From the NCBI GenBank assembly GCA_048882505.1, contig JBHLRO010000023.1, positions 11,130 to 43,129 on the forward strand: a stretch of 32,000 nucleotides of DNA, given 5' to 3'. Below, in pieces: positions 18,441 to 32,000 of the stretch; the first letter of the stretch is position 1, and each line of letters begins with the position of its first letter. Source of the DNA: Candidatus Thorarchaeota archaeon. Its GTDB lineage: Archaea > Asgardarchaeota > Heimdallarchaeia > Hodarchaeales > Hodarchaeaceae. The notes beneath the pieces were generated by a model. It made no database searches and was not told where the DNA came from. It saw only the letters and a program-made list of their open reading frames with translations. Position numbers and translations under genes: made by a program.

Positions 18441-19766
18441 ATGGCAAACCTAATCGGTATCAGACGAGAAGATAAAAACAAGTGGGAAAGAAGAACACCC
18501 ATTGTCCCAAATGACGTGAAAACACTAATAGAAGAGCAAGATTTGGATTTCGTAATCCAGTCATCCACAATAAGGGCATACACTGATGATGATTATAGAA
18601 GAACAGGCGGCCGAATTTCATCCTCTATGGATGATGCAAATGTCATCTTTGCGATCAAGGAAATCCCAATCCCTCTTTTGGAACCTGAGAAAACCTATAT
18701 CTTCTTTTCACACACGATTAAGGGCCAAAAAGGCAACATGCCTATGTTACGGCACATTCTCGACACGAAGGCCACTTTGATTGACTATGAGAAGATTGTA
18801 GATGAAAGAGGGTTTCGTCTTATTTATTTTGGAAATTATGCAGGGTACGCAGGGATGATCGAAACATTATGGGGATTTGGACAACGTATCAAGGTAAAAA
18901 AGGGGCTCGAAACTCCTTTTCTGAAGTTACGCCATACCTACGAGTATGGGGGTCTTGAAATCGCAAAGGAAGCGGTTTCTAGGCTTGCTAACCAGATTAA
19001 GGAAGAAGGGATAGATGCCGACCTAATTCCTTTGGTCATTGGATTTGCAGGATATGGAAATGTGTCCCAAGGCGCACAAGCTATTTTGGATCTCTTTCCC
19101 GTTATTGAAATCCAACCTATCGAACTGCAGGATTTCTTCTTAAAGGGTGAGTTCTCATCAAATCACTTGTACAAGGTTGTTTTCAAGGAAGAACACATGG
19201 TTACACCTAGGGGCGATTTTCCCTTTAATCTCCAGGATTATTATACCTACGGACGGGAGAAATATCAAGGAATGTTTCACGAATATTTCCCCTATCTATC
19301 AATTCTGATTAATGGCATTTATTGGTCCGATAAATACCCCAGATTATTAACAAGAAACTTTCTAAAGGATCTGTTTTCCTCCAAGCGGGATATAAGATTA
19401 CAAGTAATCGGTGATATTTCTTGTGACATCGAGGGAGGGATAGAGGCAACCGTAACAACAACAAAGCCAGATAATCCGTTTTTTGTGTACAATCCAATTA
19501 CCGGTGAAGCCAAATTGGGTTTGGAGGGAGACGGGATACCCATCATGGCAGTCGATAATCTTCCATGTGAGCTCCCTCATGAATCTTCCACCAATTTTTC
19601 CAAAACTCTAAAACCATTTATCCCCATTATCTCTTCTGCGGATTACACCAAACCATTTGATGCCTTGGATTTACCCCCAGTAATCAAGGATGCGATTATT
19701 GTTCACCAGGGTCGTTTAACTCCAAGGTATGCCTATTTGGAAGAAAACCTCTCTCAAATAAAGTAA
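18441..19766 (+). CDS. Lysine-ketoglutarate reductase / saccharopine dehydrogenase (lysine-forming) domain protein, AASS N-terminal-like (AlaDH/PNT family)
   Basis: IGIRREDKNKWERRTP, FFSHTIKGQ..NMPML, LIDYEKI, FG.YAG.AG, GYGNVSQGA, NGIYW...YPRL, GDISCD..G and MAVDNLPCELP. A GGTGG RBS precedes the ATG at 18441, so the 26 upstream codons in the track are probably not translated. Confidence 0.88.
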   Translation: MANLIGIRREDKNKWERRTPIVPNDVKTLIEEQDLDFVIQSSTIRAYTDDDYRRTGGRISSSMDDANVIFAIKEIPIPLLEPEKTYIFFSHTIKGQKGNMPMLRHILDTKATLIDYEKIVDERGFRLIYFGNYAGYAGMIETLWGFGQRIKVKKGLETPFLKLRHTYEYGGLEIAKEAVSRLANQIKEEGIDADLIPLVIGFAGYGNVSQGAQAILDLFPVIEIQPIELQDFFLKGEFSSNHLYKVVFKEEHMVTPRGDFPFNLQDYYTYGREKYQGMFHEYFPYLSILINGIYWSDKYPRLLTRNFLKDLFSSKRDIRLQVIGDISCDIEGGIEATVTTTKPDNPFFVYNPITGEAKLGLEGDGIPIMAVDNLPCELPHESSTNFSKTLKPFIPIISSADYTKPFDALDLPPVIKDAIIVHQGRLTPRYAYLEENLSQIK

Positions 19767-19900
19767 GGTTACTATAATAGTTATGATGTAGTGAAAAAAA
19801 CTTCTTTTACTTGTTGGAAAGTTCGATTTTCGTAAATAGCAGTAAATTGACTATACGAGATTTGGTATTTGTTTCAGATGTGTTTTAATATAAGATATAG

Positions 19901-21244
19901 GTGAAGAAGATGAAACATGTATTAGTTTTAGGAGCAGGAATGGTAGCTGGCCCACATATTCGCTACCTTTTAGACCATGGATTACACGTTACAGTTGCGA
20001 GTCGAACATTGACAAAAGCGGAAGCTCTGGTAGGTGATCATCCCAATGGGGTTGCTAAAAAGTTTGATATCACGAAGGATGCTGATAAATTAGACCCCCT
20101 AGTTCAGGAATGCGATCTCGCTGTATCTCTTTTGCCTTATATTTATCATGTACAGGTAGCAAAAGTTTGTCTCAAATATAAGAAACACATGGTAACCACC
20201 TCATATGTATCGCCCGAGATGAAAGCATTAGATTCTGAAGCCCGTGCGGCAGGGGTGATATTATTGAATGAGATCGGAGTCGATCCAGGTATCGATCATA
20301 TGAGTGCTCAACAAATTATTGACCGGGTTCACGATCAAGGGGGGAAAATCCTCTCATTCAAATCCTATTGTGGCGGTCTGCCCGCTCCCGAGGCCAATAC
20401 GAATCCGTGGGGTTATAAATTGAGCTGGAGTCCTCGCGGGGTTATCCTCGCAGGTAGAAATGCCGCAAAGTACAAAGAGGACAGCAACATTGTTGATATT
20501 CCTGGAGAGGATCTCTTTGACCAGAATTTTCCCTATCCTGTTGATGGAGTTGAAGGGGAGTATGAAGCATATCCTAATAGAGATTCTACACCATATCTAA
20601 ACATCTATCAGATTCCAGAGGCCGAAACGATTTTTCGAGGTACAATTCGAAACGCGGGTTGGTCGAGAGCCCTTAAGAAGGTGGCTGAAATCGGGTACAT
20701 GGATATAGAGGAACGAGAATATCCCCCTGGATTCACTTATGCTGATTTGACTGCACGCCTGCTAGGTAGTCAGGATCTTTCACAGGTAAAGTCAGATTTT
20801 ATTCAATATTTCGATCTAGATGAAGAAGATGATATAGTAAAACGATTTGAATGGATGGGTCTGTTCAATGGTGATATTCCTCTCCCAGTATCCAAAATAT
20901 CCCCTCTCGACGCGTTATGTGCACAATGGGAAAAACATCTCCAGTATGAGGAGGATGAACGAGACATGTTGCTACTTATCCATGAATTCGAATACGAATT
21001 ACCTTCAGGGAAAGAGCGGCTAACTGCAACAATGGTAGACTTTGGGCAACAGGATAAGGGAGGTGATAGCTCAATGAGCCGCACTGTTGGCTATCCAGCC
21101 GCAATAGCGGTTCGATTAATATTAGAGGGCAAAATCACTGATACTGGTGTTCTAATACCCGTTAAACGTAGTATCTATGAACCTGTTCTCGCTGAGCTCC
21201 ATGAAATGGGTATCGGATTTAGTGAAAAAAGTGAAAAAATGTGA
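19901..21244 (+). CDS. Saccharopine dehydrogenase (glutamate-forming; Lys9/AASS C-terminal-like)
   Basis: VLVLGAGMV, VSLLPY..H, TTSYVSPEM, NEIGVDPGIDHM, SYCGGLPAPE, YKLSWSPRG, EAYPNRDS, RGTIR and MSRTVGYP. Confidence 0.92.
   Translation: MKKMKHVLVLGAGMVAGPHIRYLLDHGLHVTVASRTLTKAEALVGDHPNGVAKKFDITKDADKLDPLVQECDLAVSLLPYIYHVQVAKVCLKYKKHMVTTSYVSPEMKALDSEARAAGVILLNEIGVDPGIDHMSAQQIIDRVHDQGGKILSFKSYCGGLPAPEANTNPWGYKLSWSPRGVILAGRNAAKYKEDSNIVDIPGEDLFDQNFPYPVDGVEGEYEAYPNRDSTPYLNIYQIPEAETIFRGTIRNAGWSRALKKVAEIGYMDIEEREYPPGFTYADLTARLLGSQDLSQVKSDFIQYFDLDEEDDIVKRFEWMGLFNGDIPLPVSKISPLDALCAQWEKHLQYEEDERDMLLLIHEFEYELPSGKERLTATMVDFGQQDKGGDSSMSRTVGYPAAIAVRLILEGKITDTGVLIPVKRSIYEPVLAELHEMGIGFSEKSEKM
20196..20226 (+). 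repeat. 31-bp direct repeat, copy 1 (inside the SDH gene)
   Basis: CCACCTCATATGTATCGCCCGAGATGAAAGC is identical to 31970-32000. Confidence 0.95.
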
Positions 21245-21254
21245 TGCCCTCCAT

Positions 21255-21276
21255 TCAACCAGGTTGATTTCTTTTT
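21255..21276 (+). terminator. Possible terminator after SDH (short palindrome plus T-tract)
   Basis: TCAACC-A-GGTTGA followed by TTTCTTTTT, starting 10 nt after the SDH stop. Confidence 0.3.
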
Positions 21277-21398
21277 GGCTCACGATAAGTTGCAAACAGT
21301 TCTCCAACCCTCGTATTACATTGAGGGATCAACAGCTAATGATCTTGGATTGGCAGAGTGGCGAGCTTTACTGCTGGGTACATATATAATGTGTTTTC

Positions 21399-21683
21399 TC
21401 ATTGAACTAGCAGGTTTAGACAGGGGAGAAGACACGAGGTACTATCTGCAATGCAAACTTTTAAGAGGGGAATCTTACCCATTCCTAGGTCATATATTAC
21501 CACAGATTGGAGCAAGTGAATAGATTGGGTAAGAGTACCCATTCCTAGATCATATATTACCGCCAGATCGATTTCGCGTAGATCCGCTTCGATCTGTCTC
21601 CAGGCGGCCGTTGGAGTCTTGGCAGTCGTCACGATGTAAATGTGACAGTGTGACGTTTCAATCTCGAGTTTCCAGTCTTTCAT
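21399..21683 (-). CDS. Orphan ORF C; probably truncated, with only ~41 codons GC-rich before it reads into the repeats
   Basis: Its ATG overlaps the ORF B stop (ATGA). After ...LREIDLA it reads through the two 26-bp repeats, giving VIYDLGMG twice. Confidence 0.35.
   Translation of the reverse strand: MKDWKLEIETSHCHIYIVTTAKTPTAAWRQIEADLREIDLAVIYDLGMGTLTQSIHLLQSVVIYDLGMGKIPLLKVCIADSTSCLLPCLNLLVQ
21476..21561. repeat. Two 26-bp direct repeats, period 60 bp, unique 34-bp spacer
   Basis: TACCCATTCCTAGGTCATATATTACC (21476-21501) and TACCCATTCCTAGATCATATATTACC (21536-21561) differ at one position. Confidence 0.9.
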
Positions 21684-22285
21684 GGTCTGTCATCATCCCC
21701 GTGGGCGAGAAATGCTCGCAAGGACGTTTGGATGGGGGGCAAGGGTCTTCGGCCAAAGGGCGTTTGAGGGGTCTTCCAGTCCTCCTGCTTGAGTTGCTTT
21801 ATGATGGAGCGCAGAATCGCTTCAACGTGTGGTAAGATTGGGCTCCGAGGCAAACAATCGTGAGCCAGACATCGGCGGGTGGCCGTGACAAGCCCTCGCA
21901 GGGCGGTCAAAATCACGGGGTAATCAGGCCGTGGGTGTTGGCGGGGATCTGGGAGGGGGTCGCCCCACACCTCATGGTCGAAAATGCACCTGCCCCACCA
22001 CTTGATATAGCGGATCAGTTTCCCGAATTCCATTAGCGCTGTGAAGAGCGTGTGATCTAGCGTCTGGAATAATCTGAGGAGGGATTGGTCTTGGGGGTGG
22101 TACTGGATGTCCTTCTTCAGGTGGTGTTTCAGGCCCAGAATCGGCGCTTTCACCAGTTCGGCCATGTCCCCGATCCACCACGACCACAGATACCCGAGTT
22201 TTGCGCGCTCCTGCTTGTTCAGGCGGGGAAGGGAGCGCGGGGATGAAGTATCATCAAACTGATGGGATTGGTGTTGGGCGGTCAT
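21680..22285 (-). CDS. Orphan ORF B (201 aa, helical, W/H/P-rich), unknown function
   Basis: It has ATGA overlaps with ORF A (22282-22285) and ORF C (21680-21683). No recognisable motif. Confidence 0.65.
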   Translation of the reverse strand: MTAQHQSHQFDDTSSPRSLPRLNKQERAKLGYLWSWWIGDMAELVKAPILGLKHHLKKDIQYHPQDQSLLRLFQTLDHTLFTALMEFGKLIRYIKWWGRCIFDHEVWGDPLPDPRQHPRPDYPVILTALRGLVTATRRCLAHDCLPRSPILPHVEAILRSIIKQLKQEDWKTPQTPFGRRPLPPIQTSLRAFLAHGDDDRP

Positions 22286-22884
22286 ATGTCTGGCTCCATA
22301 TCCTCTTCCTCTTGGTCTTCCTCCTCCTCATCTCCGTACTTCAGGTGTACCGTCTGGATGGCGACCCAGTAGATCGGGTCTCTCCCAGGGAAAGGGGTGG
22401 CTAGGTACTCCGAGGGGGTTCCCTCGTATTGTGTGAATCGTACCTCGGGGATTTCTCGTTCCGAAACACTAATCATGGGGATTAGGGTTTCTTGGGGGGG
22501 CCACGCGGTAAATTCCCCTATTCCCAGGGACACATAGATACTCGGGGTTTCAATTTTGGGATGGCTTCGCACAATGTTCGTAACAATCGACTGAAACCGT
22601 GCATAATGATCGGGTCTGTGATAGCTCGAGCGGTACACCTCACATACTGCCTGTACCACCTCATGGAGGTAGACGGGTTCATCAGGTGTCCGTCCGTAGT
22701 GAGCCCCCTCGGAGTCGGCCCTCAGGTAGGCCGCACAATAGCGAAACTCGGTCTGGAGGAGGAACCGGATCAACCCCACGATTTGTGCTTCGACGTCGGT
22801 GTACCCCCTTTGCTTCCGCTCGAGTACCTGGAGAAACGTTTCAAACGTGGTCGGGCGCGGTCTCTTCTGTGGGGGGGGTGGCAA
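22282..22884 (-). CDS. Orphan ORF A (200 aa; basic Pro-rich N-terminus, acidic tail), possibly 5'-truncated
   Basis: An open frame from the TTG at 22884 ends in DEEEEDQEEEDMEPDI, and its stop overlaps the ORF B start (ATGA). No ATG occurs in the first ~135 codons. Confidence 0.6.
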   Translation of the reverse strand: MPPPPQKRPRPTTFETFLQVLERKQRGYTDVEAQIVGLIRFLLQTEFRYCAAYLRADSEGAHYGRTPDEPVYLHEVVQAVCEVYRSSYHRPDHYARFQSIVTNIVRSHPKIETPSIYVSLGIGEFTAWPPQETLIPMISVSEREIPEVRFTQYEGTPSEYLATPFPGRDPIYWVAIQTVHLKYGDEEEEDQEEEDMEPDI

Positions 22885-22887
22885 GAC

Positions 22888-25800
22888 TTGAACAGAAAGA
22901 AAGTCTTCCTATTTGCTACCGGATTACTGATTTTGCTGATGGCCTCGATATTAACACCAATTACCCCCCTTTTAACAGGTTTTAAATTTACAACCCATTC
23001 TAACGTTCTGGATTTTTCCCCACGTTTTTCCACAACTAAGGTGGATAATATTAACATAAACCTAATTTCTCCACGGAATAACACCATCCACAAGGGAGGA
23101 ACAGTCATAAATATCGAATTCTTGGACGAAAATGAGAGCGTTATTCAACCAGTTACTGAACTTTATAAATGGGACAATTCCCCTAATTTTGAATCGATTT
23201 TAAGACCTCTCCCTATGAGTGACGGCATTCATCATCTTTATGTGGATGTTGAGGACGTTGGTGGAACATGGTTTGACGCTCATTTTGTATTTTATAGTGA
23301 CAATATTGCTCCGACAATCACTCTGCTTTCACCAGAGAACGGCACTACAAGCATGTCCAATGGAAATAAACAACATTGGGATTCGTCATTTGCTAGTGGC
23401 AGTTTGAACGCGATAATCAGTGAAGACGTCAATGGCGATAAGAATCCTGATGTCTTAGTGGGTGGATCTGCCCGTAGGGTCTATGCTTTTGATGGATTTA
23501 CTGGACAGAACGAGTGGCAAACCGTCGAATTTCCAACTCAAATAAAGCACATGGAGAATCTTGACCCCTCATCATTCCTTATTGGTTTAAGCGCTGGAGA
23601 AGTATATCTCCTATCTACCGATTTCGGCACCACATTAGCAAGCAATTCGTTAAAAACCTCTAACATCGTCGGAATCCGATACGACAGCAATGCTCAGAGA
23701 ATAATTGTACTACATGACACCATTTTGAGATTATTTGACAACTCCCTGAACGAACTCTGGTACGAGAATTTTAGCTCTAGCGAAACTCACAAGATCATTG
23801 TTTTGGGGGATATTAACTCTGATGCAGTCGATGATATCATCATAATTAACCAGAGCTCTTTCGTCCGTATATATAACCAGTCTAATGGTGTTGAACTAAC
23901 TAGTTACATGCTAAGTCCCAATCTTGAAAGCGTCAGTGTCGAATCACCTTGGCTGTTCGGGTCTTTTTCAAACGGTTTTGTGAGAAGATATTCAATAACC
24001 ACTGGTATTATGGACTGGGAAAGCCAGGTGGAGGCGGGACAGGTGATTTGGAAAGTAGAAAAATTTGGAAGTAATTTGATTTGTACCTCGGGATCAGGAA
24101 GAATATCTAAATTGTCTGAAACTGGGACTCTAATACATTCCACCCCAGTTTCTACCTCTTTCATTAAGATGTTTAGTTTGTTTGATTTTGATACTGACAC
24201 AGACGTAGAAATTTATTCCATCGATGGTATCGGGAATGTTGCCAATACCGATCTCCTCACTGGCAATAACTCCTGGAATGGTACAATAGGAGAACCTATT
24301 ACAGATTTCGTTGTTAGCGATATTACCAACGATACATTGCAAGATCTTATCCTTGTATCTAGCGCTGGAACAGTTTTCGCCGTGGATCCGAGAGCTCATA
24401 TACCTAAGCTCGTTCCCACATGGACAAATGTATCTTTATCGTTTAATGATGCTATTACGGGGAATAAAACGCTTTGGGAGAATTATTCTTGGGATAAAAC
24501 CCCAAACTCGAGTACATTGGCAAGTATCCCAGGGCCAAGCGGTATTCACACTCTAGAAGTGTGGGCCTCGGATAATGCAAGCAATATTGCTTACAAGAAA
24601 TACCAATTTTTCTCCGTAATAAACCTACGGCTCAATTCACCCGTTAATGATTCCTATCAACAAGGCAATACCCCAATCAACATTACCCTGAGTGAGGTTC
24701 CTCTCCAACAGACATACTTGTGGGATGGGGGTTCAACCACGGGCAATCCTACTCCGCTGCCTAACTCCGAAACTACTCATACCTTATACATCTATTTAAA
24801 GGATCAATCTCAAAATATCAGAACATTTAGCTTAAGATATATCACAGACAACACCCCGATCTCTTCAATTGCTTTAACTTATCCCGTGAATGATTCCGTT
24901 GTTGAGGGAGGAGAGACCCCAACAATTCAATTTAGCGAAACACCATTTATTCAACTTTATAACTGGAACGGAGGTACGAATTCCACAGTCTTGGCGGATA
25001 TTCCCAGTGATAGTGATACTCATACCCTAAATGTTTTCGTTGCGGATGAAGCCCTTAATTGGAAAACCGCCCTCTATGTTTTTCACACCAAAATTCAAAT
25101 CGAACTAATGTCCCACACGAACAACACAGTAGTCAATCCGAACTCTTTATTCAATTTTACATTCGGAGAAATACCAGATGTTTGCCAATATGAGATAGAT
25201 GGATCAGGTATTAATACTATAGTATTATCTAATACCTCCATAATAATAGTGACTCCTTCTAATAGCATTACTCACACACTAATGATCCGGCTAAACGATA
25301 GCGTGAACGGTAGGTGGAATGTGGAGAATTACACCTTCAAAACTCGAATCTCTGTGAATATGACCTCACATACCAATGGCAGTTTTGCGGAAACAGGGGA
25401 TTCCATCGATATCACTTTCAGTGATCCTCCCGTGACGAAACTCTTCTCATGGGATGGTTTAAAGAATTCGAGTCGTCTTCCCGTTGTTCCCTCTCCTGAC
25501 GGAGCACATTACCTAGATATCTATGTCGGGAATATCGAAGGAGACTTTTGGCACTATCATTTTGAACTCACTGTGGATACGGATCTAATCGATATTATCC
25601 TCATTACCCCTGTCAACAATTCGCGGATCAATTCCTGGTCGAATATTTCCTTCCTTTTTAGTGAGACCCCAGTCCAAACACTCTATCAATGGGATAATGC
25701 CACTCCCACTACTAGTTATACTGATCCCCTTTCCGTTGATGGGACCCACATTCTAAATATTTCTGTATTTGATTCAGCGAGTAACATGAATTCCATGGTT

Positions 25801-26676
25801 TTTTCCTGGATTATAGATGATACTCCCATCGACATAAGTCTTAATCTCCTGAACAACAATAGCATTGTGTACAGCGGGGAACATCTCAACATAACATTTA
25901 GTGAGAACCCTATTCTTTCTTGGTATTCTTGGGATTCCGTTATTTATTCGCCAGACCTCCAGCCTGTACCATGGAAAAATGGCACCCGTCAATTAAATGT
26001 CACAGCTTTTGATGGATTAAATTGGAATACTCAGCTTTTCAATCTCACAATCGTTGACAACCCTCCACTAGTGACCATTATCGATTCTGATAGGCCATAT
26101 TTACCGAATTCACCACTTTTTGTTGAAATTAATGAGAATTACTCTGATAGTTGGCATCAATGGGGGGTTGATCCTCCCATACAAGGCTTAAGTATCCTTA
26201 CTCCACAAAATGAGGGAATTCACAATCTTACTGTCCATGTGGTTGACTTGGGCGAGTCTTTTACAGATCTGTCGGTATCGATTCATGTTGACGCCACTCC
26301 CATTTCCATTCTGAATATCAACCCAATTAATAACTCAAATGTAGAGGGAGGAGAGGCCGTGAATATATCCTTCTCTGAAATACCATTTTCTGTAACTTAT
26401 TCCTGGAATGGAGCGGAGAGATCTGAGAATTTGACCGCTATCCCCACCCTCGTAGGTGAACCGTTGATTTTAAACATAATTGCGTTTGACGAGGCAGGTA
26501 ATGCCATGAACGTTAATGTGTTCTACAAAATCCCCTCAGATTTGGAACGCGGTACCCCTCTCTTATTAGTAGGGGGCTTTATATTTTTTGATCTTGCAAT
26601 TCTTGGGTATATTTTTCGAGGAAGAATATCTAATGACATGAAGAAGGCTTTGAGAATCCCTAGATTACCAGAATAA
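22888..26676 (+). CDS. Large type-I surface glycoprotein: signal peptide, ~10 Ig-like repeats, an FG-GAP/PQQ-like beta-propeller, C-terminal TM
   Basis: The likely start is the TTG at 22888 (MNRKKVFLFATGLLILLM) after a G-rich RBS-like GGGGGTGG. The ~80-aa repeats follow I.L.SP.N.S...FSE.P....Y.WD...P...G.H.L.V...D..N. Ca-loop motifs are DVNGDKNPD, DINSDAVDD, DFDTDTDVE and DITNDTLQD. The TM is LLLVGGFIFFDLAILGYIF. Confidence 0.85.
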   Translation: MNRKKVFLFATGLLILLMASILTPITPLLTGFKFTTHSNVLDFSPRFSTTKVDNININLISPRNNTIHKGGTVINIEFLDENESVIQPVTELYKWDNSPNFESILRPLPMSDGIHHLYVDVEDVGGTWFDAHFVFYSDNIAPTITLLSPENGTTSMSNGNKQHWDSSFASGSLNAIISEDVNGDKNPDVLVGGSARRVYAFDGFTGQNEWQTVEFPTQIKHMENLDPSSFLIGLSAGEVYLLSTDFGTTLASNSLKTSNIVGIRYDSNAQRIIVLHDTILRLFDNSLNELWYENFSSSETHKIIVLGDINSDAVDDIIIINQSSFVRIYNQSNGVELTSYMLSPNLESVSVESPWLFGSFSNGFVRRYSITTGIMDWESQVEAGQVIWKVEKFGSNLICTSGSGRISKLSETGTLIHSTPVSTSFIKMFSLFDFDTDTDVEIYSIDGIGNVANTDLLTGNNSWNGTIGEPITDFVVSDITNDTLQDLILVSSAGTVFAVDPRAHIPKLVPTWTNVSLSFNDAITGNKTLWENYSWDKTPNSSTLASIPGPSGIHTLEVWASDNASNIAYKKYQFFSVINLRLNSPVNDSYQQGNTPINITLSEVPLQQTYLWDGGSTTGNPTPLPNSETTHTLYIYLKDQSQNIRTFSLRYITDNTPISSIALTYPVNDSVVEGGETPTIQFSETPFIQLYNWNGGTNSTVLADIPSDSDTHTLNVFVADEALNWKTALYVFHTKIQIELMSHTNNTVVNPNSLFNFTFGEIPDVCQYEIDGSGINTIVLSNTSIIIVTPSNSITHTLMIRLNDSVNGRWNVENYTFKTRISVNMTSHTNGSFAETGDSIDITFSDPPVTKLFSWDGLKNSSRLPVVPSPDGAHYLDIYVGNIEGDFWHYHFELTVDTDLIDIILITPVNNSRINSWSNISFLFSETPVQTLYQWDNATPTTSYTDPLSVDGTHILNISVFDSASNMNSMVFSWIIDDTPIDISLNLLNNNSIVYSGEHLNITFSENPILSWYSWDSVIYSPDLQPVPWKNGTRQLNVTAFDGLNWNTQLFNLTIVDNPPLVTIIDSDRPYLPNSPLFVEINENYSDSWHQWGVDPPIQGLSILTPQNEGIHNLTVHVVDLGESFTDLSVSIHVDATPISILNINPINNSNVEGGEAVNISFSEIPFSVTYSWNGAERSENLTAIPTLVGEPLILNIIAFDEAGNAMNVNVFYKIPSDLERGTPLLLVGGFIFFDLAILGYIFRGRISNDMKKALRIPRLPE

Positions 26677-26704
26677 TTGACAACCAGCTTAGAATGTGTG
26701 ATGG

Positions 26705-27223
26705 ATGAGTAAAGGCACCAATTTTGGAACCCTAGGCATTTTTCTGATTACGTTCTTCTTGATTTGGGTTTTTTTTATTCAAGGCCCTGAAGGGGACATC
26801 TCAGATTTCTCTATATTATTTGTTGGTCTGTCTAACGACTTGTTCCTCATAGCTTTATTCCTGATTCTTTTGTCCATCCTCATGTTCGTCAATCGTGATT
26901 TCTTTCTCAAGATAACTTTAATTTTTTTGAGTATCTTTCGGGTTCTCAATACCTGTGGCTATTGTGTTCCCTTACGTGGAGAAGAATCGCCGTATCTTGT
27001 TAATGGATCATGCAGCAAATGTAAAACGCATATCTGTTCTGTTTGTTTTAAATTCGTAACCAAGAAAAAACCGAATTCAGTGGGATGCCCAAAGTGTGGC
27101 TCAGTGAAATTTGTCCCAAATGAGTTACTTGCTTATCCCTTTCATGTTCCGAGCTTGATTCAAAGAAACTTTGATAGAATTCAAAAGAGTCAAACTAAAC
27201 AAAAGGATGTCCGAAATGCCTAA
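26705..27223 (+). CDS. Membrane protein with a C4C4 zinc finger (RING-like or FYVE-like)
   Basis: Three hydrophobic segments are followed by C-x2-C-x15-C-x2-C-x4-C-x2-C-x13-C-x2-C (26954-27097). Confidence 0.75.
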   Translation: MSKGTNFGTLGIFLITFFLIWVFFIQGPEGDISDFSILFVGLSNDLFLIALFLILLSILMFVNRDFFLKITLIFLSIFRVLNTCGYCVPLRGEESPYLVNGSCSKCKTHICSVCFKFVTKKKPNSVGCPKCGSVKFVPNELLAYPFHVPSLIQRNFDRIQKSQTKQKDVRNA

Positions 27224-29960
27224 CCCATCACCTTTTACCGCCCTGAGGTTAACTATGATAACTTTGATCCTAGGTTTGGCTCTTCCCTCGTTATACGAAT
27301 TACCTATTGCTTCGTTTCAGTATAAGGATCCAAATATAAGTCGGACATTAGTCCCTATCGACAGAAAAGTGAATTATAATCCGTTATCCGATGAAATCAC
27401 CATAAATTCATTTCCAAGCTCACTTGTATATGATATAAACCTCGTTTTTATAGGTATGAACGAGAGTCACATGAATGTGTCCAGTCTCGTGGATTCTCTG
27501 CCGAGAATCTCGCAAATTAGTAGATACGTGCCTCTATCTTATCTTTTTGAGACTTTTATAAACTATTCTATTAATTATCATGTCTTTTTCATGGAACCTG
27601 CATTGGCAATTGATTTATCTGATGCAATTACGAAGATTGGGGATTACGGATTTACACTTGAAATGGGACTTTATTGGTCAGGTAGAACAAATATCACACA
27701 ATATCGTCGCCTCCAGGTTCCAAGTACCAGGGACTTCTTGTCTAACAACCTAAATACATACCGTACCACATCTGGATATTCTCCCGCGATTCTTTCGACT
27801 TCTCCCACCATTTTTTTTACCAATTTTTTCGTTAATAACTCCATCTTCTGGCAAAATGGGAATCCTGTGCCTCATGTGTTTTACTTAACTAGGGCCGATC
27901 AGGATACGGGCCTAGTTTCTGATCTAAGACTTGATTCTCGATATTCCCCAGGATTTGAATGGCCCGATGCTCGATGGATCTTATTAGACCTTTCCAGCGG
28001 GCCATGTCCTTATGAGGCCGTTGATTTGGAGTATACTAATTTTTTTGAGACATCCGAGGAGACAATCGATTTGAACAGCCGCACAAGCGAAATGACCACC
28101 TTGGTGAGATCGGTCGTCTTAGCTAGGTTCTTACCCACTTACGTTTATGAACCGATTTGGAAACCAACGATAGAGTTAGATTTGTTGGTATACCATGATT
28201 CCAACTTTAGCACGTCGAATGATATTGATTTTAATGTAGTGAAATCCTCCATTCAAGATCTTTTCCCGTTTTCTCCCGTCACCCTGAACTATGATTCATT
28301 TGAAATTGTAGGCGGCGATGAAGTTGACCAATATTTCGACTATATTGGTGGTTATTCAGATTATGCCACTTGGGCGTCTCAATTGATAGATTTTGTAGCT
28401 TCCAAAGAAATACAGGTATTTGGAAATATCGATGAAAACAATGTCTTAAGACTTTTGACAGGGGTTTTCGCTACCTCAAGAGTATCCTCTAATAGATCTT
28501 TAGGGTATACCTATGGTCCGCTGGGTTCAAATCGGGCTTTGGGGAGCGTTGTGACCCTGAGTCCCCTGACATCGGATACAACTAAAGAGGGTTACACCCA
28601 AACGATAATCCACGAATTAGGTCATGGGTTAGGTCTAAGACATCCTCACGACTTTAGGTATAATGGGAATCTGTACAAGATATGGTCTTGGGATATCGCG
28701 GAGACTCCTCTCTCATATTTCCACTCCGTATATCAGTTTAGTCTCCTTGATAAAGACGCCTCATTGAGAGGGAATTATAGGCACGTGTATAACGAAAGTA
28801 TCGGGATGTTTGAAAGAATAAGGACCGTTTTACAGCAGAAGAACTTCCCAATTAACAGTTACCCTTCAAACGTCTCGGCAATGTTGCTGAATGCATCGGA
28901 TCTTATTGCAGGGTCAGTGTTTGAGTTTCAACGACACGACTATAAGCTATCCTTATACGAAATAATCCAGGGATTTCAGCTAATTCTGGACGCCTATGAC
29001 ATTGTCCAGAAATGTTCTGATTATTTCTATCCAATTATTAATTTCGAAAATGTTAACAATACTTCCATGGATTACGGGGAGGAATTTCAACTCAAGGGCG
29101 AAAGCGTGACCTATGAATCTCCTAATATTTCCATCACAAAGAATTATTTAATACGATACGCGATAGTAAACGAAACGATCAACCACTTAAGTCAGCATGA
29201 ATCATCTTTCGTCGTATCCGTTCCCTCAATTCTATTCGGTCAACCTGATACTATTTCCTATTTTCATGTTCAGATCAATGATGGTGTATTCATCCATAAA
29301 TATGTATGGTCGCATTATTATGAGCAGCTTAAGATCTCCATCATTTCTCCTGCAAATAACATGAGGATAAATCTAGGATCCTCCACACAGGTAGGAATTT
29401 ATGGAAATTATAGATCCTCGTCTTCTGACTCTTCAATTTCAATCCTATATGGCTCGTACTGGTATGTTTTAGATAGGGAAGATAATATGTCATTCTGGGA
29501 GTCCGTCAATAAGTCTTCAGGGAATCAATGGTTTTTCGACGCTAATACCAGCAGATTTAGTGATGGTACAAATCTCATTAAAGTGCGAATCTACAATGAG
29601 GAGGTTTTAAATAATGATTCAGTTTCGCTTCAGATTTCTGGTTTGAATATAATCAACCTGAACTCTAGTGAACCCTACCATGACACCTCACACCCTACAC
29701 CACCCTCATCCCCCTCACCAAACCAGATTCCCGAAATCCCTCTTGTGATACAAGCCTTGGTTTTGATTGTACCTCCCCTTATTGTCATTCAGCGAGTTAG
29801 ACAATCTAGGAGGAAAAGACAGATGACAGATATAATGGATCGTGATATAGTTTCCTTACCAGATCATAAAGAGGCTCTCTCAGATCTTAAGGCTTCAATC
29901 AATCGAAGAGCTCCTACAAGGGAAGATAGTCAGGAGTTCAAAATCAAAAGGAAAAGGTAG
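27207..29960 (+). CDS. Membrane-anchored zinc metalloprotease (HExxHxxGxxH, metzincin-like)
   Basis: HELGHGLGLRH at 28611-28643, an N-terminal hydrophobic segment, a Pro/Ser linker HPTPPSSPSP, a C-terminal TM LVIQALVLIVPPLIVI and a basic tail. The start is the ATG at 27207 or 27216. Confidence 0.8.
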   Translation: MSEMPNPSPFTALRLTMITLILGLALPSLYELPIASFQYKDPNISRTLVPIDRKVNYNPLSDEITINSFPSSLVYDINLVFIGMNESHMNVSSLVDSLPRISQISRYVPLSYLFETFINYSINYHVFFMEPALAIDLSDAITKIGDYGFTLEMGLYWSGRTNITQYRRLQVPSTRDFLSNNLNTYRTTSGYSPAILSTSPTIFFTNFFVNNSIFWQNGNPVPHVFYLTRADQDTGLVSDLRLDSRYSPGFEWPDARWILLDLSSGPCPYEAVDLEYTNFFETSEETIDLNSRTSEMTTLVRSVVLARFLPTYVYEPIWKPTIELDLLVYHDSNFSTSNDIDFNVVKSSIQDLFPFSPVTLNYDSFEIVGGDEVDQYFDYIGGYSDYATWASQLIDFVASKEIQVFGNIDENNVLRLLTGVFATSRVSSNRSLGYTYGPLGSNRALGSVVTLSPLTSDTTKEGYTQTIIHELGHGLGLRHPHDFRYNGNLYKIWSWDIAETPLSYFHSVYQFSLLDKDASLRGNYRHVYNESIGMFERIRTVLQQKNFPINSYPSNVSAMLLNASDLIAGSVFEFQRHDYKLSLYEIIQGFQLILDAYDIVQKCSDYFYPIINFENVNNTSMDYGEEFQLKGESVTYESPNISITKNYLIRYAIVNETINHLSQHESSFVVSVPSILFGQPDTISYFHVQINDGVFIHKYVWSHYYEQLKISIISPANNMRINLGSSTQVGIYGNYRSSSSDSSISILYGSYWYVLDREDNMSFWESVNKSSGNQWFFDANTSRFSDGTNLIKVRIYNEEVLNNDSVSLQISGLNIINLNSSEPYHDTSHPTPPSSPSPNQIPEIPLVIQALVLIVPPLIVIQRVRQSRRKRQMTDIMDRDIVSLPDHKEALSDLKASINRRAPTREDSQEFKIKRKR

Positions 29961-29962
29961 AA

Positions 29963-30520
29963 ATGCCATTCAGAAAGACAAAATTATTCGTAATTGTTGC
30001 TGTTTTCTCTTTTATAAATCCATTACTGCATGTCACCGGGAGTCCTTCCTTGAGTGCTGATGAAGTCTGGAATAAATTAAATTCTGAAACTCCTCCTCTA
30101 ATTATTGATGTTAGATCACAGCTTGAGTATATCGAAAGTCATATCCCAACCTCGATAAACATTCCGATTGGCACCAATGGGATCAACCAAAGCCTTATTG
30201 ACATGATACAGGGTTACAATAAAAATGAAATAATTGCAGTCTGTAGCTGTCCCGAAGGATCAAATGCTAAAGTATTTGCTGATGACCTCCTCTCAAATGG
30301 GTTTGACAATGTCTATTATATGATTGATAATTACCGTTTCTGGCCCTATACTGCCGTGTCTGGGAGTTTACCTGGTGAATTAAATATGAATTCAATCTCA
30401 ACTGACGATATAAATCCGTCCTCGCCCCCAGATGACTTATCCCCACTACTATTGATTAACATAATCCTTGTTGGGATTCTGGTATTTCAATATGTCATTA
30501 AACCAAGAATTAAGCAATGA
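29963..30520 (+). CDS. Rhodanese-domain protein with a signal peptide and C-terminal TM anchor
   Basis: LIIDVRSQLEYIESHIPTSINIP, active-site-loop region AVCSCPEGSNA and GFDNVY, with hydrophobic segments at both termini. Confidence 0.85.
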   Translation: MPFRKTKLFVIVAVFSFINPLLHVTGSPSLSADEVWNKLNSETPPLIIDVRSQLEYIESHIPTSINIPIGTNGINQSLIDMIQGYNKNEIIAVCSCPEGSNAKVFADDLLSNGFDNVYYMIDNYRFWPYTAVSGSLPGELNMNSISTDDINPSSPPDDLSPLLLINIILVGILVFQYVIKPRIKQ

Positions 30521-30529
30521 GGGAACAGG

Positions 30530-30751
30530 TTGAAGCAGGAACTAACAGGACGACTCCTAAACCGGGTCGTGTCACAGATCCGAATGGGAGTCCAGCCCGA
30601 TTCACCCCACAGACGGCTCCCCTTCTCTTTCGGTCAAGCCATTCAAATCCACCCAAAATACCAGCTAAGGGGTGTTTGGGAGATTTTAAGACGATATTAC
30701 CTCGATTACACCCACGACAAGCCCTTTAAAGGGGGCAATCAATATGTATAA
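30530..30751 (+). CDS. Small orphan ORF in a second GC-elevated patch
   Basis: TTG start; G+C is 34/60 at 30541-30600. An alternative frame (30517-30729) is also open, so the coding frame is uncertain. Confidence 0.35.
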   Translation: MKQELTGRLLNRVVSQIRMGVQPDSPHRRLPFSFGQAIQIHPKYQLRGVWEILRRYYLDYTHDKPFKGGNQYV

Positions 30752-30803
30752 CCATCACATTATTATGTGAATTCTTATTACGTATTTAATGCGGGAATGA
30801 TCA

Positions 30804-31832
30804 ATGTCAAACCAGTTCTCTTTCTTTGAATATTATCTCGACCCTGATTTGGATACTTTTTCCGATGCTGACCTAGAGACAATCAGGAGAGAATATAAGA
30901 GGCGTGAAGCTGCTGGATGTGACCCGTCTCATTGTTCCGATGTTACAATTAAGACTCCTCGGTACGAAAAAACCGTAAAGCTAGGGGAGGTAATCGATAA
31001 AATAAAGGGTTATGAATATAAAATCAAAGGTATGTACTGGGAATTTATTCAATCAGGTAGAGATATTCCTCCTGATTCATGTCTCCTCGACCTCATCCCT
31101 GGAATCCACTGGATACACCAAACATGGAGTCCTAAGTACGAGGAGTCTAGATTTCGAATTTCATCAACGCCAAATTCGTATGTGATACCAGAAATCATTA
31201 GACCCTATGTCGATTTTGTCAATTCTGTTAAGGAATTGAGCCCCGTTATTCGTGATAATTTTGTTGGAAAAGTCAATTTTCAAATCCTATCTGATTTAGA
31301 AAAACCCCTGTATTGCCATTTAAACTATGGAACTGATGGCAAAATTACCTTAGTTGAGGAAACACACCCGAATCCCACTTTAACTTTAAAAGGGTATTAT
31401 GTACTTCTGTACCGCTTATTTCACTTGGGAGATTTACGTCCTAAGAGGTCTTCAGACACGTTTTCGTATCTACACTGGAAGATGAAAAAATATTTCGAAC
31501 CTAGACGTCGAAACGAACCTTTTATTCATCCATTTTTGTATAACTTCCTACCAACTCCGAATCTCAATGTCTATGACCCCCTGAAACAATGGTTTTATAC
31601 TCTTTTAAAAGTCGAACAGACCTATGCCACCAAGTTTGACCTATTCTATGGTCGTCCCGTAAAACGGTATCGTGTTTCCTTGGATGACAATCACAGACTT
31701 CGGATACAAATTCAGTATCGAGATGTTGAAACCCCTCAGAATTATTACCCTCAATCCTTCTATGAGAGCATCTCCATTTTCGAGTTTCTCCGCTGGAACC
31801 TTTATGGTCAAATTCTTGATATTTACCGGTAA
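30804..31832 (+). CDS. Hypothetical protein (342 aa), possibly with a central SCP2-like segment
   Basis: A long ORF with an ATG start. FVGKVNFQI...LYCHLNYGTDGKITLVEETHPNPTLTLKG...LYRLFHLG resembles the SCP2 strand/helix pattern. Confidence 0.7.
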   Translation: MSNQFSFFEYYLDPDLDTFSDADLETIRREYKRREAAGCDPSHCSDVTIKTPRYEKTVKLGEVIDKIKGYEYKIKGMYWEFIQSGRDIPPDSCLLDLIPGIHWIHQTWSPKYEESRFRISSTPNSYVIPEIIRPYVDFVNSVKELSPVIRDNFVGKVNFQILSDLEKPLYCHLNYGTDGKITLVEETHPNPTLTLKGYYVLLYRLFHLGDLRPKRSSDTFSYLHWKMKKYFEPRRRNEPFIHPFLYNFLPTPNLNVYDPLKQWFYTLLKVEQTYATKFDLFYGRPVKRYRVSLDDNHRLRIQIQYRDVETPQNYYPQSFYESISIFEFLRWNLYGQILDIYR

Positions 31833-31969
31833 TCGTAAATTGATATAATATTCAAGGACTTTATTTTCTAAATTAGAAACTTTAAAAATGGAATTTTTAT
31901 TATACAGATGAGGTCAGAAAGTGTGATGTCCAATATCGCCTTAATCAGACAGTTCGATAGGTGAATCTT

Positions 31970-32000
31970 CCACCTCATATGTATCGCCCGAGATGAAAGC
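31970..32000 (+). repeat. 31-bp direct repeat, copy 2; may extend beyond the window
   Basis: Identical to 20196-20226 and reaches the last base of the window. The sequence upstream of the two copies differs (ATGGTAA vs GAATCTT). Confidence 0.95.

Follow-up and report, generated by a model that had tools for sequence, protein, structure and literature searches.

A GC-rich island of three orphan ORFs within an insertion in an archaeal saccharopine dehydrogenase gene

Genes and features at the locus

The window, i.e., the whole 32,000-nt stretch of DNA analysed here, comes from an Asgard archaeon and ends together with its contig (C23). It carries an 11,554-bp insertion (20416–31969, plus strand) in a gene of the lysine pathway that encodes saccharopine dehydrogenase (SDH; 19901–21244, plus strand) and that is intact but chimeric. 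The insertion comprises a foreign SDH 3′ end, a repeat-bearing spacer, a GC-rich island, a surface operon, a gene for a 342-aa protein, and non-coding DNA.

The surface operon (22888–30520, plus strand), annotated with Pfam and NCBIfam, consists of four genes, which encode a 1,262-aa Ig/beta-propeller protein, a membrane zinc-finger protein, a 929-aa protein with a weak match to a metalloprotease motif, and a rhodanese. The probable start, a TTG, is located 6 nt past the island edge, and the 280 nt upstream of it contain no TATA-like box. The operon has a patchy distribution and was present in only G000 and G012 among 83 genomes of the class. A paralogous operon is located on contig C14 (53639–61484), and the alignment between the two begins at residue 4. 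Both this paralogue and the copies in G012 have ordinary AT-rich DNA upstream and another gene at the position of the island. In G012, divergent genes of 82–87 aa precede the operon, at the position and in the orientation of the island's ORF A (see below); the one compared with ORF A belongs to no Pfam family. The island occupies the place of the upstream control region in relatives of the surface operon. Downstream, the last gene of the insertion (30804–31832, plus strand) encodes the 342-aa protein, which matched no family and has a 53%-identical paralogue on contig C15.

We delimited the GC-rich island (21560–22882, 1,323 bp, no strand assigned) by composition profiles and a two-change-point fit, which returned a GC content of 0.561 between these edges and 0.408 outside them. 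In 200-nt windows, GC runs at 0.51–0.61 over ~21600–22900 and at 0.37–0.47 in the flanks, and the island as a whole lies ~5.5 SD above the genome mean. An earlier note on this DNA, made from the sequence alone, had described 58–65% G+C against 35–38% in the flanks. The contrast holds, but those figures were somewhat too high (56% versus 41% as measured); the edges are just as sharp as that note stated. A comparison of tetranucleotide profiles, which the same note had proposed, gave a correlation between island and host of about 0; the island is nearer to other GC-rich ORFan islands of the genome (r = 0.54–0.67) than to rRNA and tfb (r = 0.27–0.30), which are as GC-rich as the island itself. 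The island is single-copy within its own genome, where neither tblastx nor blastn found a second copy, and tRNA and Rfam scans of the window returned nothing. Its DNA is real and compositionally foreign.

Two 35-nt direct repeats (21467–21501 and 21527–21561, plus strand; span 21467–21561) abut the low-coordinate edge of the island. They are 86% alike and 60 nt apart, their 26-nt core differs at one base, and each holds a TATA-like ATATATTA. The pair was also considered as a possible mini-CRISPR array; its similarity is imperfect over 35 nt or more and resembles that of a diverged 60-nt tandem duplication, and part of the sequence between the repeats is an inverted copy of the repeat flank. 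No copy of the repeat was found at the other island edge or elsewhere in the genome, no further copy of the 26-nt repeat in 83 genomes of the class, and no CRISPR array among the contigs assembled in this bin. Likewise, neither the spacer (21245–21600) nor the end of the insertion (31833–31969) has similar DNA in the relatives' loci that we fetched or elsewhere in the genome.

Coding content of the island

Three minus-strand ORFs joined by two ATGA overlaps (22282–22285 and 21680–21683) are present, as the earlier note had reported. ORF A (22282–22884) spans 200 aa when counted from a TTG at the edge of the island; the frame stays open up to that boundary, and the ORF is probably 5′-truncated. 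Its first in-frame ATG comes only at about residue 137, in agreement with the lack of an early ATG remarked on before. Other gene callers place the start at residue 36 or 118, and none of the candidate starts has an ATG or a ribosome-binding site. ORF B (21680–22285, 201 aa) is intact, starts with an ATG in the overlap with ORF A, and has GGAG 9 nt upstream as a plausible ribosome-binding site. ORF C (21399–21683) has 94 codons from an ATG, the first 41 of which (21562–21683) lie in GC-rich DNA. GC is 0.50 in this first part versus 0.41 in the tail, which crosses the AT-rich flanking repeats; ORF C is a 3′-truncated gene followed by a chance tail. As there is no credible start for ORF A, and as ORF C exits the GC-rich DNA after 41 codons, we conclude that the island is clipped at both ends, and here too the first reading of the sequence proved correct. 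ORFs A and C are incomplete, and only ORF B could still yield a normal product.

ORF A is predicted to have a helical N-terminal half and a disordered C-terminal half with an acidic tail. ESMFold and AF2 modelled it poorly, too poorly for a fold search. The guess that its middle is winged-helix-like was not borne out: there is no Pfam match, the AF2 pLDDT is 42, and ORF A is unlike the small divergent genes of G012. For ORF B, AF2 in single-sequence mode predicts a four-helix bundle (pLDDT 61, pTM 0.49). Against the PDB, BFVD, and the Atlas, this model retrieved only generic helical bundles with E > 0.1 or TM < 0.5, and the BFVD search gave no match with E < 0.1.

We searched widely for homologues. 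Among 15 billion proteins, and likewise in IMG/VR, JGI metagenomes, GTDB genomes, and phages, ORFs A and B are without a relative. Queried at near and shorter lengths against a protein database of 5.8 billion clusters, they returned only themselves or nothing. ORF A recovered only itself from 1.84 billion representatives, the cluster members of ORFs A and B include no relative beyond self, and the ESM Atlas gave no usable lead for either. No Pfam, PHROG, NCBIfam, or PADLOC model matched ORFs A–C, no toxin, antitoxin, or defence family was recognised among them with PADLOC, Pfam, and NCBIfam, and Pfam returned no credible match for ten other open frames within or near the island. ORFs A and B are not conserved syntenic core genes; a six-frame search of 60 relatives, 21 of which belong to the same genus, did not find them. 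Viral hallmarks and relatives in dedicated collections were equally lacking, with no PHROG match and nothing in IMG/VR, phages (searched with the proteins), or plasmids (searched with the island DNA). The databases searched contained neither a longer version of the island nor a donor, and no RNA run was listed as holding the sequence among the sequencing runs searched.

At its present site, the island is probably a passenger. An alternative is that the three ORFs form a working accessory cassette, e.g., two regulators or a module for anti-defence or addiction, which is transcribed divergently from the surface operon, travels with it, and replaces the small divergent gene of the G012 type. We consider this unlikely, even though several observations fit it. 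ORF A matches the 82–87-aa G012 genes in position and orientation, a TATA-like palindrome precedes ORF A by ~100 nt on the minus strand, and ORF B yields a helical bundle at pLDDT 61 without an alignment. Furthermore, another sample, X3, contains a variant of ORF A's region (at least 22368–22818) that is 93% identical, with 32 substitutions and no indel over 451 nt; such a pattern of substitutions without an indel fits continued coding constraint and hence a possible function. However, ORF A has no credible start and a frame that is open to the GC-rich edge, ORF C leaves the GC-rich DNA after 41 codons, and no regulator, toxin-antitoxin, or defence model was matched. ORF A also has no similarity to the small divergent G012 gene, and the three ORFs are absent beside the paralogous C14 operon and the G012 copies examined. 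The intact ORF B with its plausible ribosome-binding site, together with the two ATGA couplings that have been kept, speaks for such a cassette and against the passenger reading.

It is improbable that the GC-rich stretch is non-coding, with chance frames in a structured RNA or in non-coding DNA of another genome. GC-rich DNA is poor in stop codons, and one ORF of at least 200 codons arose in 8.7% of 5,000 shuffles of the island by a first-order Markov model. To a protein language model, ORF B is hardly recognisable (score 1468), and the poor ESMFold and AF2 models of ORF A point the same way. In contrast, a second ORF of at least 195 codons appeared in only 0.46% of shuffles, before a shared strand, adjacency, and ATGA overlaps are required. 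GC at codon positions 1, 2, and 3 is 0.62, 0.41, and 0.63 in ORF A and 0.61, 0.43, and 0.67 in ORF B; the second position is given as 0.20–0.24 under the first and third, which is the usual coding pattern. In addition, no Rfam family reached its gathering score in the window, and the four-helix model of ORF B is coherent. The earlier view that these are real genes is supported, in that the ORFs have the look of true coding sequence.

Structure of the insertion and its support in two assemblies

SDH is native up to 20415 and foreign from 20416, and the reading frame is preserved across the switch. Its aa identity to the closest relative, G016, is 95.9% over codons 1–98 and 84.8% over codons 99–447. 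A 220-bp direct duplication brackets the insertion. Copy 1 (20196–20415, plus strand) is native SDH and equals C70:47–266 except at position 20263. Copy 2 begins at 31970 (31970–32000, plus strand, where the window and contig C23 end) and continues on contig C70, whose first 77 nt are the last 77 nt of C23. The two copies share 152 identical bases (20264–20415). Past the duplication, the SDH copy in the window drops to ~74% DNA identity with the copy on C70. This C70 stub is the stranded native 3′ end of SDH (codons 99–447), is 97.1% identical to G016, and is followed by the downstream gene order of G016. In G016 itself, SDH directly adjoins those genes, and the site is empty and uninterrupted.

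The two joints of the insertion differ in kind. One lies inside homology between donor and recipient, at the native-to-foreign switch (20415/20416) in the SDH frame. The other is without homology: non-coding DNA ending at 31969 meets SDH codon 99, and there is no similarity upstream of the joint. As read from this arrangement, the island is an internal segment of the 11,554-bp insertion and not a separate insertion at the locus. Two proposals of the earlier note were not supported. First, a small element mobilised in trans is disfavoured, as the island has no flanking repeats of its own (repeats are found on one side only) and is internal to the insertion. Second, the island does not qualify as a novel system, being part of a larger insertion whose two joints lie in SDH. 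The reported lack of a mobility gene stands and extends from the island ORFs to the other insert genes tested: we found no integrase, transposase, recombinase, or defence family in the insertion with Pfam, NCBIfam, and PADLOC, and with PHROGs for ORFs A–C, the large surface protein and the rhodanese gene being scanned by Pfam only. A self-mobile element (provirus, integrative plasmid, or transposon) was also considered and rejected, given that there is no recombinase gene, no two-ended repeat, and no hallmark gene.

A single Logan contig (L004, 11,614 nt, run SRR30758835) spans 20386–31999, where it can be placed on the window without a difference; it is 100% identical over 2.2 kb across both island edges. 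Logan depths are 15.6 for the upstream sequence running into the repeat, 16.6 for the second repeat copy, 18.4 for the insert, and 33.4 for the shared repeat, which fits one integrated copy; contig depths are rough (the upstream flank reads 25). We assign little probability to the alternative that the 11,774-bp unit (220-bp repeat plus insert) is a free circle beside an uninterrupted chromosome, or that it switches by recombination across the repeat. The assembly graph (upstream to repeat to insert to repeat to stub) fits both topologies, and the 152 identical repeat bases exceed the 77-nt contig overlap that suggests the assembler's k. However, depths near 1:1:1 with the shared repeat at ~2× are predicted by integration and would be a coincidence for a circle, and no replication or partition gene was found in the unit. 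Finally, it is highly improbable that the island is an assembly chimera, i.e., a fragment of another organism wrongly joined into the contig: the sequence comes from a metagenome bin with 3.7% estimated contamination, its composition switches abruptly, and the independent assembly is probably from the same reads, but two assemblers that used different k (31 in Logan and, judging from the 77-nt overlap of C23 with C70, 77 in the other) agree on the sequence through both edges, which the earlier note wanted verified, the island sits within one unbranched 11.6-kb Logan contig of even depth, and pieces of the island, the surface operon, and the replacement SDH end co-occur in two further samples of the study.

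Origin of the island and mode of entry

We favour, with somewhat better than even confidence, an origin of the island as a clipped fragment of an unsampled, GC-richer element that was caught in a mosaic insertion via homology-anchored illegitimate recombination. The source would be a compact operon of a ~56% G+C genome absent from public sequence data, and the donor would most likely be a virus or plasmid of the same sediment community. The captured piece would have held ORF A minus its start, the whole of ORF B, and the first 41 codons of ORF C. The mosaic DNA of 11,554 bp, with the island inside, would have entered the SDH gene by two dissimilar joints, the first a homologous exchange within SDH (switch at 20415/20416) and the second a joining without homology of 31969 to the position matching 20196. 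Such an event would have duplicated 220 bp, swapped the SDH 3′ end for a congener's version, and left the native 3′ end stranded 11.6 kb downstream. We infer both the mobile-element source and the recombination mechanism; a virus or plasmid is suggested only by the fact that homologues are lacking altogether and that the genes are compact and overlap. A native gene that was kept GC-rich was rejected as a source, as ORFs A and B are absent from the 60 relatives and the G016 site is empty.

The mode of entry that we propose resembles homology-facilitated illegitimate recombination (de Vries & Wackernagel 2002) and the "C-terminal displacement" of bacterial rhs/T6SS effectors (Jackson et al. 2009), to the extent that these are set out in the discussion by Kirchberger et al. 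2017 (PMC5361080). As in these precedents, a homologous anchor within a gene provides one joint, while the other is without homology. Also shared are a diverged 3′ end that arrives together with unrelated cargo, an ancestral 3′ end that persists downstream as an orphan, and the lack of an integrase. The present case differs in its host, an Asgard archaeon, and in the gene concerned, which encodes a housekeeping-type SDH rather than a polymorphic toxin. Moreover, 220 bp of recipient sequence were duplicated here rather than deleted, with the mechanism in our case read from the sequence. The duplication lies upstream of the homologous joint and is not a direct product of classical homology-facilitated illegitimate recombination; a circular intermediate or a replication-based event would be needed.

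Mobile elements that have been described for Asgard archaea (Wu et al. 2022, PMC8813620; Valentin-Alvarado et al. 2024, PMC11529989) measure tens of kb and bear recombinases, giant genes, or viral hallmark genes; they integrate at tRNA genes or beside CRISPR loci. With these elements and with ORFan islets derived from viruses or plasmids, the island shares a sharp compositional contrast, compact overlapping genes, a lack of homologues, and a strain-specific presence, here in a Heimdall-group genome with other foreign islands. Unlike the described Asgard elements, it is only 1.3 kb long, is cut at both ends, and has no recombinase, giant gene, or hallmark gene. As the evidence stands, we see in the three ORFs a dead-end fragment rather than a new system. 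What is new is the context, in that the island sits inside an insertion that split SDH and supplied a replacement end. We regard this as a clean and recent case of DNA entering a conserved metabolic gene without a mobility enzyme, in a close archaeal relative of eukaryotes. The insertion delivered 11.6 kb of cargo and a new end for the gene, along with a small piece of GC-rich DNA of an entirely unknown kind, and the island sequence offers a tag with which the source sediment could be searched for an unsampled mobile element.

A broader proposal, which we put forward tentatively and hold to be possible but doubtful, is that with the island a GC-rich lineage of Hodarchaeales-type Asgard viruses or plasmids has been sampled for the first time, one whose proteins are without relatives among ~15 billion public ones. 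That unsampled gene pool would also be the origin of the other GC-rich ORFan islands of the genome, at C14:71–96 kb and on C62, and Asgard chromosomes would gain such fragments, integrase-free, in homology-anchored insertions that rewrite the ends of conserved genes. A GC-rich ORFan on C14 (309 aa) has no relative in IMG/VR or in genomes of the class.

Composition and authenticity of the GC-rich island

In a sliding profile of 200-nt windows, G+C content rises to 0.51-0.61 at ~21600-22900, compared with 0.37-0.47 in both flanks and ~0.41 across the whole window. A two-change-point likelihood fit placed the limits of this island at 21560-22882 (56.1% G+C vs 40.8%), and the profile and the fit thus bear out the sharp-edged GC-rich stretch described in the earlier note. 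Compared with every 1,320-nt window in the genome (4.3 Mb), the island lies ~5.5 SD over the mean and ranks fifth in G+C; two of the four higher windows are 23S and 16S rRNA genes, and the bin carries archaeal rRNA genes. We found no second copy of the island in its own genome.

We consider an assembly chimera unlikely because an independent assembly agrees with the bin and because pieces of the island are present in other samples. A Logan contig of 11,614 nt (k=31, run SRR30758835, probably the bin's own run) is 100% identical to the window through both island edges, and maps to window 20386-31999 as a single unbranched piece of even depth. Of two further samples from the same study as the source run, one (X2) contains 229 nt of the island, identical, and the other (X3) contains 451 nt at 93% identity (32 substitutions, no gaps), together with pieces of the neighboring surface operon and of the replacement end of the saccharopine dehydrogenase gene (SDH), both considered below.

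Three overlapping ORFs

Three minus-strand ORFs, A (22282-22884), B (21680-22285), and C (21399-21683), are joined by two ATGA overlaps, exactly as the earlier note had read them. G+C at the three codon positions is 0.62/0.41/0.63 in ORF A and 0.61/0.43/0.67 in ORF B, which is a coding pattern, and when the island was shuffled 5,000 times under a Markov model, only 0.46% of the shuffles contained a second ORF of 195 codons or more. Hence, the ORFs exceed chance expectation. An early ATG is missing from ORF A, and none of its candidate starts is preceded by a ribosome-binding site; the frame of ORF A is open as far as the compositional edge, and three gene callers made three different choices of start. 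ORF C is GC-rich in its first 41 codons only. The missing start of ORF A and the short GC-rich portion of ORF C support the previous reading of a clipped foreign fragment.

ORFs A-C have no family match in Pfam, PHROG, NCBIfam, or PADLOC, and tRNA and Rfam scans of the window found no family. ORFs A and B are unmatched in 60 relatives, 21 species of the same genus among them, and large-database searches with their proteins returned self matches only. AlphaFold2, run without an alignment, modeled ORF B as a four-helix bundle (helices 24-62, 67-107, 122-141, and 150-167; pLDDT 61, pTM 0.49), for which fold searches found no specific match. ORF A gave a poor model (pLDDT 42) in which the N-terminal half is helical and the C-terminal half disordered. 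The proposal that the ORFs form a novel system is not supported. ORF B, alone or paired with ORF A, may still have some function, since its frame is intact, GGAG lies upstream of it, and the X3 variant is free of indels.

An insertion in the saccharopine dehydrogenase gene

The window ends where its contig (C23) ends, and the final 77 nt of C23 are the initial 77 nt of another contig, C70. SDH occupies window 19901-21244; a second, partial copy starts at position 47 of C70 and begins at codon 99; downstream of it lie the four genes found 3' of SDH in the closest relative, G016, where the site is uninterrupted. The two copies match over 220 bp bar one base (window 20196-20415 = C70:47-266), past which the window copy falls sharply to ~74% DNA identity. 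Amino acid identity to G016 is 95.9% for the first 98 codons in the window and 97.1% for the stub on C70, but 84.8% for codons 99-447 of the window copy. Given the contig overlap, the SDH duplication, the gene order in G016, and this split in identity, window 20416-31969 (11,554 bp) is an insertion. It comprises a foreign replacement 3' end of SDH, with which the gene remains intact at 447 codons; a 316-nt spacer with two 35-nt repeats at its end; the GC island; the four-gene surface operon; a 342-aa gene; and 137 nt of non-coding DNA. At window 20371 the bin has T, and the Logan contig that covers the shared 220-bp repeat has C at full depth; the population may vary at this site, or the two assemblies may differ in consensus.

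The native 3' end of SDH is stranded downstream as an uninterrupted 349-codon frame (C70:46-1092). Since the frame remains open and matches G016 at 97% identity, the insertion is a recent one. The stranded end is likely to be labeled by gene callers as a second, truncated SDH. From the contigs alone, a free circle of 11,774 bp is possible; however, Logan depths (upstream-repeat junction 15.6, second repeat copy 16.6, insert 18.4, shared repeat 33.4) agree better, roughly, with one integrated copy.

Family scans found no integrase, transposase, or replication gene in the insertion; the lack of a recognizable mobility gene thus stands. An element mobilized in trans is not supported. Entry through one homologous and one illegitimate joint, the simplest account of the insertion, is a pattern familiar from homology-facilitated illegitimate recombination and from rhs and T6SS effector genes that undergo "C-terminal displacement," in which orphaned 3' ends accumulate downstream (PMC5361080). 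Island and insertion fall outside every described Asgard mobile-element class; Aloposons, HeimV/HeimM, and the Atabeyarchaeia elements span tens of kb, are site specific, and carry recombinases (PMC8813620, PMC11529989). The insertion works like gene-end displacement, the displaced end being the 3' end, with the island aboard as a probable passenger, and its architecture is of somewhat greater interest than the ORFs.

A simple linear event would not place the 220-bp duplication on the side where it lies, so the insertion likely involved a circular intermediate or a step based on replication. The flanks of the insertion (window 19400-20415; C70:47-3300) are 91-98% identical to G016, compared with ~85% for the upstream rest of C23. 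The insertion therefore lies within a G016-like recombination patch of ~4.3 kb and may have been imported along with its flanks via ordinary homologous recombination.

Setting and source of the island

The surface operon (window 22888-30520, plus strand) encodes an Ig/beta-propeller protein, a membrane zinc finger, a 929-aa protein with a weak metalloprotease-motif match, and a rhodanese. It is a patchy accessory module, present in only 2 of 83 class genomes, this one and a relative (G012), with multiple diverged copies in both: a second copy here at C14:53639-61484 (38-46% identity by BLAST), and several partial copies in G012 (contigs C482, C79, C234, C114, and C371). The C14 alignment begins at residue 4 of the large surface protein, which supports TTG at 22888 as the operon start; the island thus stops 6 nt short of the start codon. 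The plus-strand frame is open from 22492, and one gene caller consequently lengthened the protein 94 residues into the island; the public annotation of its N terminus may be wrong. On the operon's own strand, the ~280 nt preceding its start (window 22600-22888, plus) are free of TATA-like octamers. At the position of the island, the C14 copy instead has a same-strand 259-aa gene, and G012 has an AT-rich spacer of 230-380 nt with a small gene (82-87 aa, family not known) divergent from the operon.

Outside the island, the insertion is host-like (0.40 G+C; tetranucleotide r to the island ~0), so the island is foreign to its carrier too. The simplest account is that the island would be a scrap of a compact operon, clipped at both ends, from an unsampled GC-richer genome, and one part of a mosaic DNA that would have entered SDH through one homologous and one illegitimate joint. 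The tetranucleotide profile of the island correlates with other ORFan GC-rich islands of the genome at r 0.54-0.67, versus 0.27-0.30 with equally GC-rich rRNA or tfb. From this likeness, the total orphan status, and the tight gene overlaps, we infer a virus or plasmid as the probable source. Several other non-rRNA islands of 50-57% G+C (C14:71000-96000 and C62:2600-4400), which resemble the window island in tetranucleotide profile, contain mostly ORFans, among them a 309-aa protein with a basic N terminus (C14:84584-85510) for which 83 class genomes and IMG/VR yielded no relative, plus HTH proteins, a response regulator, VKOR, and an ERCC4/HhH nuclease.

Repeats near the island lie on one side only. 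Both 35-nt copies (window 21467-21561) are at the island edge, each with a TATA-like ATATATTA, and the 5' flank of the repeat recurs between them in inverted orientation. The repeat is unique to this locus among 83 class genomes, and the region may represent either a promoter that was duplicated or a hairpin element.
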